A DNA stretch of 64,000 nt, taken from assembly GCA_037440365.1 (NCBI GenBank), contig JBBIUF010000003.1, positions 28,910-92,909 of the forward strand, in the 5' to 3' direction. Position 1 is the stretch's first letter. Each line of letters starts with the position of its first letter. The DNA is from Chloroflexota bacterium. Its GTDB lineage: Bacteria > Chloroflexota > Anaerolineae > UBA4142. The position numbers and the translations under genes were made by a program. Positions 47,638 to 53,714 of the stretch are shown one piece after another. The notes below the pieces were generated by a model. That model saw only the letters and a program-made list of their open reading frames with translations. It was not told where the DNA came from and made no database searches.

Positions 47638-49350
47638 CTAGTTGGTTTGCCGCGCGCGCCGCATTTCGGCACGCAAGCGACCGAGCGGCACGTCCGGTGT
47701 CAAATCTACAAATGTCATTGCTTGAACGAGCACTGGGTGCACCGCTTGAAGCGCGCGAAACATTTGCTGGCTGGTGTTGCGATAATCGGGATGACCCTGC
47801 GGCGCTGACCGTAGTTCGATCCAGTGGTACGCTTCGCGCAAATTCAAGCGCACGTTGTAGCGGACGCGAAACCCAAACGGCACGACGTATTGCGCCTCGA
47901 AGGGCATTGCCACCGCCAGGCGATCGTGGAACAGCGCGGCTTGCTCCATGCACCGCGCATAGTCCGCGCGAATCTCGGCGACGGCGTTAAGGTCGTCGTT
48001 GATTTCGTAACCGAGCGCGGTCGTAAACATTTGCCGCTCCGCCGACACAACGCGATGCCGCTGGAGGTCGCGGTATTCGCCGATATTCAATTGGAGATCA
48101 AATTCATACTGGGCATGTTCAAACGCGCGCCCAGGTTTGTGGCGGCGGTTCTGACGCGCGCCGACGTACGTCTGGATGATGCGTGTCTTTTCCGCGTCCG
48201 TCATTTCGCGCACGTGTTCGACGATTTCGGTTTTGGGCAGGGCGGTGCCGGGAAATAAAATCGCGGCGACGACGCGTTCGACGGCATCCGCGTTGTAATC
48301 CACTAGCACAACTTTGGCATCCGTGGCGCGCGCGTGATGCGGCAGATATTCGCGCGCTAATTCGATTTGTCGCAATCGCTGGTCTTGCAAAAACGTTTGA
48401 TACGCTTGGCCTTTTTCGTCGTCGGCGCGTTTGAGAAAAGGCCCAATGACCTCGCCGAGTTCGTACTGCGCGGCGCGCGCGATGAGTTGATTTTCTTCGA
48501 GCGGATCGGCGTAGAGTTTGATGAGGAGATATTCCAGCGCGCGTCCATTGCCCCACACGCCCACATTGGTCAGCGTCGCCATGGGCAGAAAACAGCGGAG
48601 CATGTCCCGCGCGCGCGAACGCACCGCTTGCTTGTACGCGAACGCGGCGCTGGCGCGCAAATCATCGTCGTGGATTGTCGCATAGCGCACAACCTCGCCG
48701 GTAAGCGCGTTTTCAAATTCCAGTGTGTCAATCGGCGTGCGTTCGGTCACGTGCGCGATCATGCGCGGCAAGTGGTGCGCATACGCATCGAACAATGCGT
48801 CCAACGTCGTTACATAGTCAGCGGCGAATGGCGCTTCCATAATGCGGCGCGGGCGATAGTAGCGGTATTGTCCATTGACCTTGTCGTCAAAGGCAACATA
48901 GCGCGAGGATTTTTCGAGGTAGGAAATTCCCACGCGGCTATTTTCGATGGCGCGCGCGGCGATCTGCGAGATATCCTGGCAGGCGAGGTGCGCGCCGCCG
49001 AGTTCGCCGACCGAATCATCGCCGTAATCGGAGAGGACGCGGCGATAAAACGATTCGGCTTTGGCCGCTCCGGCGCGAATCTCGGTTTGCGTCGGGTTTG
49101 CGTTGGGCGCGATTTGTTCGATGCCCAGAGCGGGCTGTCCAAAAAATTCGTCGAGGAATAAATGCCGCACCCCTTTGGCGGTGCGGCTATAGCGCGAAAA
49201 TAATGCGCCCTTGATCACTTCGGGTAAATTTTTTAGCGCGACCACCGAGCGATCGATGTTGGTGAAAAAAGGCGCGACGAGTTGAGCTTGGTCGGCGGTG
49301 AGCGTTTCGCTTGAGGGAGTCAATTGCGCCAGGAATTCGGGTTGTGCCAT
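47638..49350 (-). CDS. Tandem-domain ThyX (flavin-dependent thymidylate synthase)-like protein
   Basis: 570 aa, about 2x normal ThyX length. The C-terminal half has YRDLQRHRVVS (RHR motif) and a WIELRS..QGH region. The N-terminal half has FSRYSR and a similar helical pattern but no RHR. Confidence 0.55.
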   Translation of the reverse strand: MAQPEFLAQLTPSSETLTADQAQLVAPFFTNIDRSVVALKNLPEVIKGALFSRYSRTAKGVRHLFLDEFFGQPALGIEQIAPNANPTQTEIRAGAAKAESFYRRVLSDYGDDSVGELGGAHLACQDISQIAARAIENSRVGISYLEKSSRYVAFDDKVNGQYRYYRPRRIMEAPFAADYVTTLDALFDAYAHHLPRMIAHVTERTPIDTLEFENALTGEVVRYATIHDDDLRASAAFAYKQAVRSRARDMLRCFLPMATLTNVGVWGNGRALEYLLIKLYADPLEENQLIARAAQYELGEVIGPFLKRADDEKGQAYQTFLQDQRLRQIELAREYLPHHARATDAKVVLVDYNADAVERVVAAILFPGTALPKTEIVEHVREMTDAEKTRIIQTYVGARQNRRHKPGRAFEHAQYEFDLQLNIGEYRDLQRHRVVSAERQMFTTALGYEINDDLNAVAEIRADYARCMEQAALFHDRLAVAMPFEAQYVVPFGFRVRYNVRLNLREAYHWIELRSAPQGHPDYRNTSQQMFRALQAVHPVLVQAMTFVDLTPDVPLGRLRAEMRRARQTN

Positions 49351-49379: not shown

Positions 49380-49814
49380 TTAGAGCGCAATTTGCTTTGC
49401 CAGCAAGTGCCGCGTGGGCGCGGGTAATTTGGCAAAGTCTACGGCAACCTGATAAAAATTATCACGCTTGCTCACGCGCGCAACTTGGCCGGGTACCTGG
49501 ACGATCCGGTTATTGTCCAACAAAAATTCCAGGGCGAGTGTTTGCCCCACCGCAAACTCATCGGGTGATTCCAAGAGCGCGCCTGTTTCGCTGAGATTGA
49601 GCGCGCGCGCAAAACCGGTGAACGTTTCCGCGCCGGCATCGAGACACCGATACGCTGTTAATAGCTTGAGTTTGCCGCGGGTTGCGCGACGGCGTTCGTC
49701 CGCCCGTTTGCGAATTGTGCGTTTGCGTGTCACTGGTTTTTGCGCCACGGGTTTGCGGGCGACTGGCTTTTTTGTGGTGACCGTGCGTTTGGATTTAGCT
49801 TGGGGAGCAGGCAT
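49380..49814 (-). CDS. PilZ-domain protein with basic KPV-repeat N-terminal tail
   Basis: Start set at ATG 49814. PilZ motifs RRATR (RxxxR) and NLSETG (D/NxSxxG). N-terminal KKPVARKPVAQKPVTRKR. Confidence 0.75.
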   Translation of the reverse strand: MPAPQAKSKRTVTTKKPVARKPVAQKPVTRKRTIRKRADERRRATRGKLKLLTAYRCLDAGAETFTGFARALNLSETGALLESPDEFAVGQTLALEFLLDNNRIVQVPGQVARVSKRDNFYQVAVDFAKLPAPTRHLLAKQIAL

Positions 49815-49863: not shown

Positions 49864-50691
49864 TTATTCGTCAAACAAGAAAACGGGTTCTTGATAATAG
49901 CGCACATGCCGTTCACGCATTTTGCTTTTCATCCACTCGTCGAGCCAGGCATTTTTGGCGGGGAGTGGTTCATTGCGCTCTAAAATCTCAAGCGGAATGT
50001 TGATCCGCATGGCGCGCCCTGGGATGATGTGGCGCGTAATACCCATGGGCAACTTGGAGCCATTCAGCGCGAGATGGCGTATTTCGTTTGGATGGTAACG
50101 TGGAAAAACGATCAGCGCGCTCAGCCGCGTGTTTTCGGTGAGCAACCGTTCGAGATCGGTGTGCGCCACGCGAAACAATTCGCCGCGTCCTTCATACTGC
50201 GCTACGACCCGGTTTAACTGCCGCGCTTGCTCGGCGAGTTTCGTTTCGGTCGAGGTTAGCGCATATACGGTGCCGTCATTGAGCATGACGGTTGCAATGC
50301 TCGCGCGCTGTGCCAGGGCGGCTTCCGCCGCGTCCGCGGTCATGGGTTCGATCTGCAAACCGCGCAAGTGCCGGATGGCTTCCAGCACATCGAACACCGG
50401 CAAATCGATCAGCATGTGGTTCCAGGTTTCCAGCACAAGATCAGGCGCGTCATAGTCAATGACCTGGGCAACGACATCGAGACAACCGATTTGCTTGAGC
50501 GCGGTCACGCGCGTTGCGCCATCGAGCAAAATAAATTTGCCGCCGAACTCGGTGACGATGGGTGGATTTTTAAGGTAGCGATCCATGCCGAGGCGTTCCA
50601 CCAATCGCGCGACACGCTTTTTTTCGATCTGCTCGTGCAATAATACTTCGCTGAGCGCAACCATCCGCAGAGTGACTTCTTTGGCGTTCAC
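49864..50691 (-). CDS. ParB/Srx-fold domain protein (candidate small-molecule kinase, see findings)
   Basis: Start proposed at GTG 50691 (GGAG 7 nt upstream), which avoids overlap with trpB2. LSEVLLHEQ...PPIV....FILLDGATRVTAL fits the ParB/sulfiredoxin N-domain pattern. About 170-aa C-terminal domain of unknown family. Confidence 0.6.
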   Translation of the reverse strand: MNAKEVTLRMVALSEVLLHEQIEKKRVARLVERLGMDRYLKNPPIVTEFGGKFILLDGATRVTALKQIGCLDVVAQVIDYDAPDLVLETWNHMLIDLPVFDVLEAIRHLRGLQIEPMTADAAEAALAQRASIATVMLNDGTVYALTSTETKLAEQARQLNRVVAQYEGRGELFRVAHTDLERLLTENTRLSALIVFPRYHPNEIRHLALNGSKLPMGITRHIIPGRAMRINIPLEILERNEPLPAKNAWLDEWMKSKMRERHVRYYQEPVFLFDE

Positions 50692-50760
50692 AGACGGACT
50701 CCGATTTTCCCGCGGCGGCTCGCCGATATTATAGACGAAAGGTAAACGCGAGTCAACCGC

Positions 50761-50797
50761 ATTGGAACGGGGCGAGATCAACTCGCCCCGTTCCAAT
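50761..50797 (-). other. 16-bp perfect-stem hairpin immediately after the trpB2 stop
   Basis: ATTGGAACGGGGCGAG-5 nt-CTCGCCCCGTTCCAAT, 3 nt downstream of the stop. No U-tract follows on the minus strand. Confidence 0.6.
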
Positions 50798-50800
50798 GGA

Positions 50801-52165
50801 TTAGAGTTCAACTTGGGGCAAATTGGCAATGGCTTCGCGGACGGCTTCAGCGGGGTATTCGTAATCCGGGAGTTGTTTGCGAAAGTAGGCATCATATCCT
50901 CCAAGATCAAAGTGACCGTGACCGCTCAAGTTAAAGGCGATGATTTTCTTTTCGCCGCTCGCTTTGCATTTCAAGGCTTCGTCAATTGCCACGCGGATCG
51001 CGTGCGACGATTCCGGCGCAGGCACAATGCCTTCGGCGCGCGCGAACTGGACGCCGGCGGCAAACACGGTGTTTTGTTGCACGGCCACCGCTTCGATGAT
51101 TTTTTGATCGTACAGCGCGGAAATGATCGGCGACATGCCGTGATAGCGCAAGCCGCCTGCGTGAATGGACGCTGGCATGAACGACGAGCCCAGCGTGTAC
51201 ATTTTAACGATCGGCGCCATCTTCGCCGTATCGCCGTAATCAAACGCATACGTGCCTTTAGTCAGCGACGGCGTTGCGGTTGGCTCGACAGCGATGATGC
51301 GCGTCGTTTTACCGTTGACCAGGTTTTCGCGGACGAACGGCAGGGCAATGCCGCCAAAGTTCGAGCCGCCGCCGACACACCCGATCAAAATATCGGGATA
51401 GACATCGGCTTTTTCAAATTGTTTGAGCGTTTCCAAGCCAATGATGGTTTGGTGCATCAAGACATGATTCAGCACCGAGCCGAGCGAATACTTGGTGCTG
51501 GGCTGGTGCGTCGCGGCATCTTCGACGGCTTCGCTGATCGCGAGACCGAGTGAGCCGGAGCAATCTGGGTCTTGCGCGAGCATCGCGCGTCCCGCGTTCG
51601 TATCAACGGACGGCGACGCAACAACCGACGCGCCGTAGGTTTCCATCAAAATGCGGCGATAGGGTTTTTGCTCGTAAGAAATTTTGACCATGTACACTTT
51701 ACATTCCATATCGAATACGTTACACGCGAACGCTAGCGCCGTGCCCCATTGCCCCGCGCCGGTTTCAGTAGACAAGCGTTTGGTCCCGGCTTGCTTGTTG
51801 TAGAACGCTTGCGGGATGGCGGTGTTGAGTTTGTGCGATCCAACTGGGGATACGCCTTCGTACTTGAAATAGATTTGCGCTGGCGTGTCAAGCAGTTTTT
51901 CCAAACGCCGTGCGCGAATCAACGGCGACGGACGATACAATTTATAAATATCTCGCACTGGTTCGGGAATATCAATGTAGCGTTCCTGGCTCACCTCTTG
52001 CATGATCAGTTCCATTGGGAACAGAACCGCCAGGTCAGCGGGTCCAATTGGTTTGCCGGTGCCGGGATGGATGACGGGCGGTAAGGGTTGAGGCAAATCG
52101 GCTTGGATGTTGTACCACGCCTTGGGCATTTCACTTTCTTCGAGCAAGAATTTGGTCTGGTCCAT
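50801..52165 (-). CDS. trpB: TrpB2-type tryptophan synthase beta-like PLP enzyme
   Basis: 454 aa. N-terminus [18 protein letters not shown] and extended length are TrpB2 hallmarks. PLP-lysine motif [17 protein letters not shown]. Confidence 0.9.
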
Positions 52166-52263
52166 TTTGTTTCTCCTGAGTTAATTTTTTGAGCGAACGG
52201 CTGAACTGCGCGTTACCTGTTCAAGTCATCGTCACCTCCCCGATCTGCGGTTTAGGACGCGGG

Positions 52264-53271
52264 CTATTGATAACTCGCCAAGCCTAGCCCCATGGCGGTG
52301 CGCGCATCATCCACCGTTTGCTGGGAAATTGGGCGTACCTTTGCCGCGCCGGCGGCGAGAATGTCGTCCAACAATTTTTTCTGGGAAGCATAATACGCAC
52401 GGCGTTCGCGGATCGGATCGAGAAAATTGTTTAGCGCGACAGCTAGCTTCTTTTTCACTTCGACATCGCCAACCTTGCCCGCGCGATACCGCGTTTTCAA
52501 ATCTTCCACTTCGGCCTTGTTTGGATTAAAGGCGTCGTGATATTGAAACACCGGGTTGCCTTCTGGATTGGCGGGAATGTCGGCACGGATGCGCGTAGGA
52601 TCGGTGTACATGGCGCGCACTTTGGTCTCAACGGTTTTGGCGTCGTCGGAAAGCAAAATTGCATTGCCAATGGACTTGGACATTTTGCCTTTGCCGTCGG
52701 TGCCCATCAACGTCGGCACTTCGCCGATCAGCGCGTCCGGTTCGGGGAATACTTCGCCGTATTGAAAATTAAATCGCCGCGCAAGTTCGCGCGTCACTTC
52801 AATGTGCGATTCCTGATCCTTGCCGACTGGGACGAGGTGCGCCTTGACGTGCAGAATATCGGCGGCTTGTAACACGGGATAGCCCAGCAAGCCATACGCT
52901 GGGTTTTCGATGTGTTCCGCGTCCATCACTTCCTTGAGCGAAGGCACGCGCTCCAAACGCGGCACGGTGGTCAACATCGAAAAAAGTAAATGCAATTCGC
53001 ACACGCTTGGCACATCCGATTGCACATAGATGGTGGTCTTGGCTGGATCGATGCCAACTGCGAGATAATCAAGCACCAGGTCGCGGGAATATTGCCGCGT
53101 GGCGACGACGTGTTCCTTGTCTTGGTTGCGCGTGAGTGCGTGATAATCGGCGACGACGAGAAAGACTTCGTATTCGTCTTGTAAACGCACGCGGTTTGCC
53201 AATGTGCCGACGAAATGCCCCAGATGCAATGGCCCGGTTGGGCGATCACCTGTCAAGATTCGCTTTTTCAT
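52264..53271 (-). CDS. trpS: Tryptophan--tRNA ligase
   Basis: Start set at ATG 53271 (GGAGGA RBS). [13 protein letters not shown] (HIGH-type) and KMSKS motifs. The upstream part of the tracked ORF covers the T-box leader. Confidence 0.95.
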
Positions 53272-53313
53272 TTTGTCCTCCCAAAGTTGGCGCAATGCCG
53301 CTCGTGCTGTATG

Positions 53314-53680
53314 AATAAAAAACGCTCGTCCCGCGCACAAGTTTGTGCGACTAGGGACGAGCGTTTGATTGCCCGTGGTGCCACCCGTTTTAGACTGGTT
53401 GGCGTTACCGTCAACGCCGTTACAAAATAAAATCCCTATCGCGAAACGATAGGGATTTGTGCCAGTCTCACTCTTGAGGGACGCGGAATAAATCCTGAAT
53501 CCCTTTTGCCATGATAACGGAGGCGACACCGGGAAACCCTACTGACCTGCGCGTTCGGATTTCCAACTCCCCGATCCATTTACCGCCGTTCCCAGCATCG
53601 CGCTCACACCCTTGCACGCGACTCTCTGCGCTTGTCCTGACGGTTACTCGTTCGGCTCAACGTTGTTATTTAATCAGTTG
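53314..53680 (-). promoter_or_regulatory. T-box riboswitch leader (tryptophan-specific by context) with terminator/antiterminator
   Basis: Minus strand has an AG-bay-like CAGAGAG, a distal GGGTGTGAGC, UGG candidates at 53578-53576 and 53594-53592, and the T-box core AAACGGGTGGCACCACGGG (53390-53372). The terminator is AACGCTCGTCCC...GGGACGAGCGTT plus TTTTTT (53366-53314). Confidence 0.85.
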
Positions 53681-53685
53681 ACGCA

Positions 53686-53714
53686 ACTATATCACGCCAG
53701 ACCTAAATTGTCAA
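53686..53714 (-). promoter_or_regulatory. Sigma-70-like promoter of the T-box/trpS transcript
   Basis: Minus strand reads TTGACA-17 nt-TATAGT. Confidence 0.7.

Follow-up and report, generated by a model that had tools for sequence, protein, structure and literature searches.

A SerK/SbnI-family serine kinase homologue encoded beside a T-box, trpS and trpB2 in a Chloroflexota bacterium: a candidate source of O-phosphoserine for tryptophan synthesis

The closest described relatives of the protein considered here are two free serine kinases. SbnI of Staphylococcus aureus and S. pseudintermedius (PDB 5uje, 5ujd, 6nr6) is a free L-serine kinase that uses ATP; it belongs to staphyloferrin B synthesis and supplies O-phosphoserine to the neighbouring fold-type II pyridoxal phosphate (PLP) enzyme SbnA. 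SerK of Thermococcus kodakarensis (TK0378; PDB 5x0b and others) is an ADP-dependent free serine kinase that takes part in cysteine synthesis and in the assimilation of serine. The cellular role of TrpB2, the stand-alone type of tryptophan synthase beta chain, has been unclear since its discovery; its affinity for indole is high, and it mostly does not work with TrpA. TrpB2 enzymes have been reported to be O-phosphoserine-dependent (Busch 2014, as cited in PMC11917138). The stretch of DNA analysed here (the window) comprises 64,000 nucleotides of a Chloroflexota bacterium and encodes a homologue of SerK and SbnI with 275 amino acids (AA) next to trpB2, which follows trpS and a T-box leader (Table 1). 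Both characterised kinases feed O-phosphoserine to fold-type II PLP enzymes, and TrpB2 is such an enzyme. The best explanation of the locus, to which we give an even chance, is that this homologue is a serine kinase supplying O-phosphoserine to the neighbouring TrpB2 for the synthesis of tryptophan.

Comparisons of sequence and structure show that the 275 AA protein is a homologue of the SerK/SbnI family and so a probable serine kinase. A Pfam search with it gave zero matches, including none to ParBc and none to DUF1015. In a single-sequence search of the PDB sequences, it matched SbnI over the full length with an E-value of 5.6e-15 and Thermococcus SerK with 3e-7. A family profile built from 48 homologues matched both over their full length (SbnI 2.9e-39, SerK 4.5e-16), whereas the best ParB-type protein, Noc, reached 8e-4 and was matched in the N-domain only. 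The AlphaFold (AF2) model from the alignment of the 48 homologues had a pLDDT of 93.6 and a pTM of 0.89, and the top structures found for it with Foldseek were SbnI (E-value 3e-20, TM 0.82-0.83) and SerK (5e-16, TM 0.82), both aligned across the two domains with 238-277 columns. ParB, Noc and sulfiredoxin covered only about 80 N-terminal residues (TMq 0.25), which form the common ParB/Srx nucleotide-binding domain including the DG..R region. The suggestion of the original prediction that the ParB-like gene may encode a serine kinase is thus supported by both the profile and the structure comparison: the protein falls into the SerK/SbnI branch with its catalytic residues kept, and not into the DNA-binding ParB or nuclease branch. 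A classical ParB role was rejected, since ParB and Noc match the N-terminal part alone, neither a helix-turn-helix nor a dimerisation domain is present, and no parA is encoded nearby. The absence of a chromosome-partition context noted before also held, as neither parA nor parS-like repeats were seen among the adjacent genes, which are trpB2, trpS, a PilZ gene and a ThyX-like gene.

The protein contains the motifs LLHEQ, NPPIV and LLDGATRVTAL, and residues of the first and the last can be compared with the characterised kinases. E20 of the query aligns with E20 of SbnI and with E30 of SerK, the residue changed in the E30A and E30Q crystal structures in the PDB. The H-E motif is common to all three proteins, and its extension to H-E-Q to the query and SerK, which also has the DG..R motif. 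The Asp of this second motif, D57, aligns with D58 of SbnI, and both Glu20 and Asp58 are needed for SbnI to act as a kinase (PMC9641203, citing Verstraete 2018). In the set of 48 homologues, D57 and G58 never vary, while H19, E20 and R61 are conserved in at least 90 %. In the C-domain, LPMGITRH..PGRA of the query aligns with VPAGVTRF..SGRC of SbnI, and the motifs of this domain common to SbnI and SerK are conserved across the homologue family.

Despite this common full-length fold, the identity to each of the two kinases is only about 20 %, and the genomic settings differ. In place of the SbnI partner SbnA, the neighbour here is TrpB2, and siderophore genes are absent. SerK, which has a role at the serine/O-phosphoserine node, comes from an archaeal lineage, whereas the query belongs to a bacterial, mesophilic one. 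SerK works in making cysteine and in assimilating serine, whereas this genome has cysE and cysK, and the conserved neighbour is trpB2. The archaeal SerK relatives adjoin genes for phosphoglycerate dehydrogenase and an aminotransferase, as does a paralogue of the query described below.

The elements given in the original prediction, namely a promoter, a T-box, trpS, trpB2, a hairpin and the 275 AA gene, were all located on the minus strand as described. The T-box leader lies immediately downstream of its promoter and matches Rfam RF00230 with 97.5 bits (gathering score 93) and an E-value of 3e-20. Since the specifier position in the RF00230 alignment reads UGG, followed by A, the leader is expected to sense tRNA-Trp. 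The T-box sequence GGGUGGCACCACG is followed by the terminator, with arms GCTCGTCCC...GGGACGAGCG and a T-run at about 53363-53317; the two arms are GC-rich and 10-13 nt long. With its score above the gathering score, its specifier codon, its T-box sequence and its terminator, the leader qualifies as a member of RF00230. In the organism's family, T-boxes with 80-94 bits occupy the equivalent position upstream of trpS in four relatives (L012, L108, L109, L098), and no T-box was found in two loci from the second family of the order. The genome has at least two Trp T-box units among nine T-box matches in total; the other Trp-specific T-box (105 bits, specifier UGG; G000 C3:10941-11266, L117 442-767) lies outside the window and precedes the canonical trp operon ending in trpB1-trpA.

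The trpS gene is the sole clear copy of a tryptophanyl-tRNA synthetase (TrpRS) gene in the genome, as indicated by a single strong tblastn match, and trpB2 begins 98 nt past its stop codon. The predicted TrpB2 scores far above the cutoffs of its family, with 736 bits against 366 on NCBIfam NF009057 ('TrpB-like PLP enzyme') and 637 against 519 on TIGR01415. Its nearest solved structures are Sulfolobus TrpB2 6hul (6hul_B; E-value 1e-133) and 4qys (1e-113), compared to about 1e-37 only for TrpB1 structures. As for the TrpB2 enzymes of Sulfolobus (TrpB2a, TrpB2i) and Thermotoga, the gene is encoded away from trpA, and the canonical trpB1-trpA pair sits elsewhere in the genome. The T-box, trpS and trpB2 are each typical of their families. 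To our knowledge, co-transcription with trpS under a T-box has not been described for the characterised TrpB2 enzymes.

The boundary between trpB2 and the kinase gene is marked by a hairpin and a second promoter. The hairpin of the original prediction is present, but its stem is a perfect one of 17 bp instead of 16 bp. The 91 nt region containing it folds at -42.6 kcal/mol, with a z-score of -6.0 versus shuffled sequences. Relatives in the organism's family always have a GC-rich hairpin just past the trpB2 stop codon, which differs in sequence and in some cases has a T-tail. In the window, the hairpin is probably the end of the trpS-trpB2 transcript. The promoter between the hairpin and the 275 AA gene was absent from the original description. 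As TTGAC(G/T)-17-TCTATAAT, it recurs in almost every locus of the organism's family, also where trpS is directly upstream of the gene, and it is the most conserved element of an intergenic stretch that otherwise varies in length and sequence among these relatives. Because the kinase gene's own conserved promoter follows the hairpin, control of this gene by the T-box is doubtful, and its proposed induction by uncharged tRNA-Trp is weakened. The most economical reading comprises two predicted transcription units, one that runs from the T-box through trpS and trpB2 to the hairpin and one with the kinase gene on its own promoter, although transcriptional read-through from trpB2 into the kinase gene may occur.

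The conservation of this gene order was followed in 34 species genomes of the organism's order, which cover two families and 18 genera. The kinase homologue was found in 33 of them. Among the 29 fetched loci of the order, trpB2 lies immediately upstream of the kinase homologue in about 21, and trpS without an intervening trpB2 does so in three more. Metagenomic homologues of the 275 AA protein are 59-71 % identical and further representatives 40-51 %; a single-protein search of genome contigs gave just two close relatives. Kinase homologues of the order's second family show 46-52 % identity and have lost the PilZ/ThyX synteny on their downstream side. The gene order there is trpS-like, trpB2, a small MGMT-like gene and the kinase homologue, adjoining trpB1 and trpA. 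The small gene encodes an MGMT-like DNA_binding_1 protein (PF01035) of about 135 AA and sits between trpB2 and the kinase homologue in L090-L095 and L097. Upstream of the kinase homologue, as far as trpB2 or trpS, the intergenic DNA of this family also contains short tandem or inverted repeats, for example of the GCGATAC type in L085.

Several genomes of the order contain a second kinase paralogue, 42-45 % identical, in another cluster that also holds a trpB2. Its order is trpB2, a class-V aminotransferase gene, a phosphoglycerate dehydrogenase gene (TIGR01327, 428 bits), the kinase homologue, iorA (TIGR03336, above the cutoff) and iorB. With these genes, the cluster could combine two tryptophan salvage routes, from indole and from indolepyruvate. 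A gene for an FAD-binding molybdopterin-dehydrogenase subunit is also located in the cluster (L100, L103, L104, L106; about 2.3-10.4 kb in each). A quick maximum-likelihood tree places the two kinase paralogue groups as sisters (SH-aLRT 87), with forms fused to a dehydrogenase as their next relatives. The trpB2 groups linked to the two paralogues, for which a tree was calculated with FastTree only, are not sisters: TrpB2 of the second cluster groups with TrpB2 from other families within the class (support 100) and away from the TrpB2 linked to the T-box. This points either to two linkages of separate origin or to a single ancient one that has persisted. The linkage of the kinase gene with trpB2 described in the original prediction is therefore kept, with trpB2 or trpS, across the whole order and in two paralogous lineages. 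If the tree holds, inherited gene order by itself accounts less easily for a kinase gene that stands next to two distinct TrpB2 lineages.

The genome was also inspected for other uses of O-phosphoserine. A gene for a SerB-like HAD-IB protein lies in an operon with SerC-like and SerA-like genes on contig C37, and the genome has cysE (245 bits, above the cutoff) and cysK. Since these genes are present, the kinase does not appear to be needed for serine or cysteine synthesis, and an essential role in cysteine synthesis, as for archaeal SerK, was considered unlikely. TrpB2 is the evident O-phosphoserine consumer among the candidates checked, as serine and cysteine synthesis look complete without the kinase. 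Elsewhere in the genome, a divergent CysK-like PALP protein of 356 AA (G000 C131:6083-7150) reaches 107 bits on the cysK model with a cutoff of 351; its gene is located about 850 nt downstream of a ThrC/cysteate-synthase-like gene (G000 C131:3984-7150). It is possible that this protein is another O-phosphoserine-using enzyme.

Beyond the order, the family was surveyed in 401 Chloroflexota genomes, of which 38 contain the kinase family and 205 a TrpB2 above the cutoff. These tallies include the unpublished genomes G145 (locus L040), G227 and G344, and no conclusion rests on them alone. The wider family comprises 1,165 cluster representatives at E-values up to 1e-3, most of which are labelled 'hypothetical'. 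Fusions to phosphoglycerate dehydrogenase are abundant. Tri-domain proteins of about 910 AA (P0179, P0275, P0279 and others; L018) combine a PALP domain resembling Ser/Thr dehydratase or serine racemase with phosphoglycerate dehydrogenase and a SerK-like domain and are abundant in Chloroflexota (Promineifilaceae, Ardenticatenaceae), and dehydrogenase-kinase fusions of about 570 AA are commoner still. The longer forms of the family are all dehydrogenase-kinase or PALP-dehydrogenase-kinase fusions, and none of them joins TrpB2 to the kinase. Outside the order, the neighbours vary and include genes for phosphoglycerate dehydrogenase, ThiF-family proteins, pseudouridine synthase and thymidylate kinase. 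From these patterns, the wider kinase family appears to belong to the serine/O-phosphoserine node, with the partnership with TrpB2 as a speciality of this order. One homologue, P0240, is fused to a prokaryotic JAB domain, and a ThiF-family E1-like gene adjoins the homologue in two genomes (L015, L016). This association recalls the mycobacterial cysteine route with CysO, MoeZ, Mec and CysM, which is O-phosphoserine-dependent.

The proposed pathway draws on homology, fold, conservation of catalytic residues, gene order and its conservation, and regulatory elements. The 275 AA protein would phosphorylate free L-serine with ATP or ADP to O-phospho-L-serine, the neighbouring TrpB2 would condense this with indole to tryptophan, and the TrpRS encoded on the same transcript would load tryptophan onto tRNA-Trp. 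The Trp-specific T-box would turn on the trpS-trpB2 transcript, which most likely ends at the 17-bp hairpin, when tRNA-Trp is uncharged. The kinase gene would form a separate unit transcribed from its near-consensus promoter, and the supply of O-phosphoserine would therefore be constitutive or separately controlled, outside the T-box response. In a wider form, the proposal states that a dedicated free-serine kinase was recruited beside two TrpB2 lineages, that of the T-box trpS-trpB2 unit and that of the iorAB cluster, and that O-phosphoserine is then the physiological co-substrate of TrpB2 in vivo. We consider this form tentative, its chances falling slightly short of even.

Several observations weigh against the proposal. 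The support for a route from O-phosphoserine and indole is comparative and genomic and comes from a single order. As all genomes with the linkage belong to this order, inherited gene order contributes to it. The co-occurrence with trpB2 suggested by the original prediction was not enriched across the phylum, since TrpB2 is present in about 20 of the 38 genomes with the kinase family, which equals the background rate (205 of 401), and neither trpB2 nor trpS was found within 1.5 kb of a kinase homologue in the 29 fetched Chloroflexota loci outside the order. The recurrent partner of the wider family, by fusion or adjacency, is instead phosphoglycerate dehydrogenase. Within the locus, the hairpin and the separate promoter part trpB2 from the kinase gene, so that the two are neighbours and not demonstrably an operon. 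With SerA and SerC, a cell already has a route to O-phosphoserine that needs no kinase. Furthermore, the equivalog models were failed by a wide margin (NF033589 SbnI, 87.6 bits against 350; NF053625 SerK, 59 against 380). Because of these low scores, the protein is regarded as a member of a distant subfamily and as an orthologue of neither SbnI nor SerK, and its substrate could differ.

Some of these observations would fit a general kinase of the serine/O-phosphoserine node. Such an enzyme would act in serine assimilation, from serine via O-phosphoserine and 3-phosphohydroxypyruvate to 3-phosphoglycerate, or serve several consumers, and its position beside trpB2 would merely be inherited. The closest outgroups of the order's kinases are the phosphoglycerate dehydrogenase-kinase and PALP-dehydrogenase-kinase fusions that abound in Chloroflexota, and archaeal serK beside genes for phosphoglycerate dehydrogenase and an aminotransferase has been read as a serine assimilation operon (Makino 2016). 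The lack of phylum-wide co-occurrence with TrpB2 and the kinase gene's separation by its own promoter and the hairpin point in the same direction. However, the adjacency to trpB2 or trpS outlasts changes of the downstream neighbours across the two families and 18 genera, the kinase homologue occurs with two non-sister TrpB2 lineages, and the serA and serC homologues of this genome lie beside the SerB-like gene on another contig and not beside the kinase gene. We therefore regard a general node enzyme as unlikely, although it is the alternative that deserves most attention.

The reaction could also run in the opposite direction, with the protein substituting for phosphoserine phosphatase, completing serine synthesis and feeding TrpB2 with serine. 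Only 6-7 of the order's 34 genomes have a SerB-like protein or a match to TIGR00338, compared to 33 with the kinase homologue, and four of the five genomes with the cluster of aminotransferase, dehydrogenase and kinase homologue have no SerB-like gene. DUF1015 proteins ('SerBK'), which are remote structural relatives of SbnI, are encoded beside serA and act at the serine/O-phosphoserine step, genetically replace serB (GapMind 2026, PMC13759103). Owing to this scarcity, its concentration in genomes with the second cluster and the precedent of DUF1015, a phosphatase-substitute role is possible in relatives. For the protein in the window it seems improbable: DUF1015 is a different family, a SerB-like gene is retained here in one operon with homologues of serC and serA, thermodynamics disfavour the reverse kinase reaction, as stated in the same paper (PMC13759103), and both characterised relatives act as kinases. 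Other types of phosphatase are also possible, and TIGR00338 remained unmatched in 6 of 14 control genomes as well. A role mainly as a regulator, as a nucleotide-binding ParB-like switch or a DNA-binding protein with secondary or lost kinase chemistry, has very little probability in our view. SbnI acts in addition as a transcription factor that responds to haem, and its annotation is that of a bifunctional regulator and O-phosphoserine synthase; a SerK-like protein binds CTP rather than ATP (2025 survey, PMC12704722). Nevertheless, the catalytic Glu and Asp as well as the SbnI/SerK C-domain motifs are conserved across the family, and the arguments against a classical ParB, from domain content to adjacent genes, apply here too. 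The supply of O-phosphoserine to TrpB2 by a serine kinase is hence retained as the preferred explanation.

The genes downstream of the kinase gene have features of their own. A PilZ-domain gene (PF07238, E-value 3e-12) lies directly downstream at 49380-49814 on the minus strand, in the same order in most relatives of the organism's family. The N-terminal tail of its product is very basic, with KPVxx repeats and a weak HC2 histone-like match. It is followed at 47641-49350, also on the minus strand, by a gene for a ThyX-like protein of 570 AA, more than twice the usual ThyX length. Two stretches of this protein match the Thy1 domain, and it may thus be a flavin-dependent thymidylate synthase with an internal duplication or a fusion. 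It is conserved in relatives with 68-73 % identity.

Table 1. Features of the locus in the window; coordinates are positions in the window, and assignments of function are predictions.
Feature	Position	Strand	Remarks
Promoter of the T-box/trpS/trpB2 unit	53686..53714	-	sigma-70-type, TTGACA-17-TATAGT with TG extension, 11/12 matches
Trp T-box leader and intrinsic terminator	53317..53669	-	Rfam RF00230 match at 53669-53350
trpS, tryptophanyl-tRNA synthetase, 335 AA	52264..53271	-	PF00579, E-value 8e-78; ATG at 53271, stop 52264-52266
trpB2, stand-alone TrpB2-type tryptophan synthase beta chain, 454 AA	50801..52165	-	NF009057
Hairpin, perfect 17-bp stem, 5-nt loop	50760..50798	-	begins 3 nt after the trpB2 stop; without T-tail
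Kinase gene's own promoter	50728..50756	-	TTGACT-17-TATAAT, near-consensus, 11/12 matches
SerK/SbnI-family free serine kinase homologue, 275 AA	49864..50691	-	ParB/Srx-like N-domain and SerK-type C-domain; GTG at 50691, homologous to the ATG of relatives; GGAG 8 nt upstream; stop 49864-49866

The enzyme family itself is known, and the new element is the pairing of a serine kinase homologue with TrpB2; in the literature searched, no mention of a serine kinase together with TrpB2 or tryptophan synthase was found. The partnership gives a testable route in which serine would be converted to O-phosphoserine, combined with indole to tryptophan and passed on to Trp-tRNA. The comparisons also bring into the small SerK/SbnI family a large bacterial group that has neither annotation nor a Pfam model, and the fusions with phosphoglycerate dehydrogenase bear on how many bacteria handle the serine/O-phosphoserine step without SerB. 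If the proposed partnership is true, it would be a third biological role for kinases of the SerK/SbnI type, after cysteine and siderophore synthesis, and would provide the first in vivo context for the in vitro finding of 2014 that TrpB2 uses O-phosphoserine.

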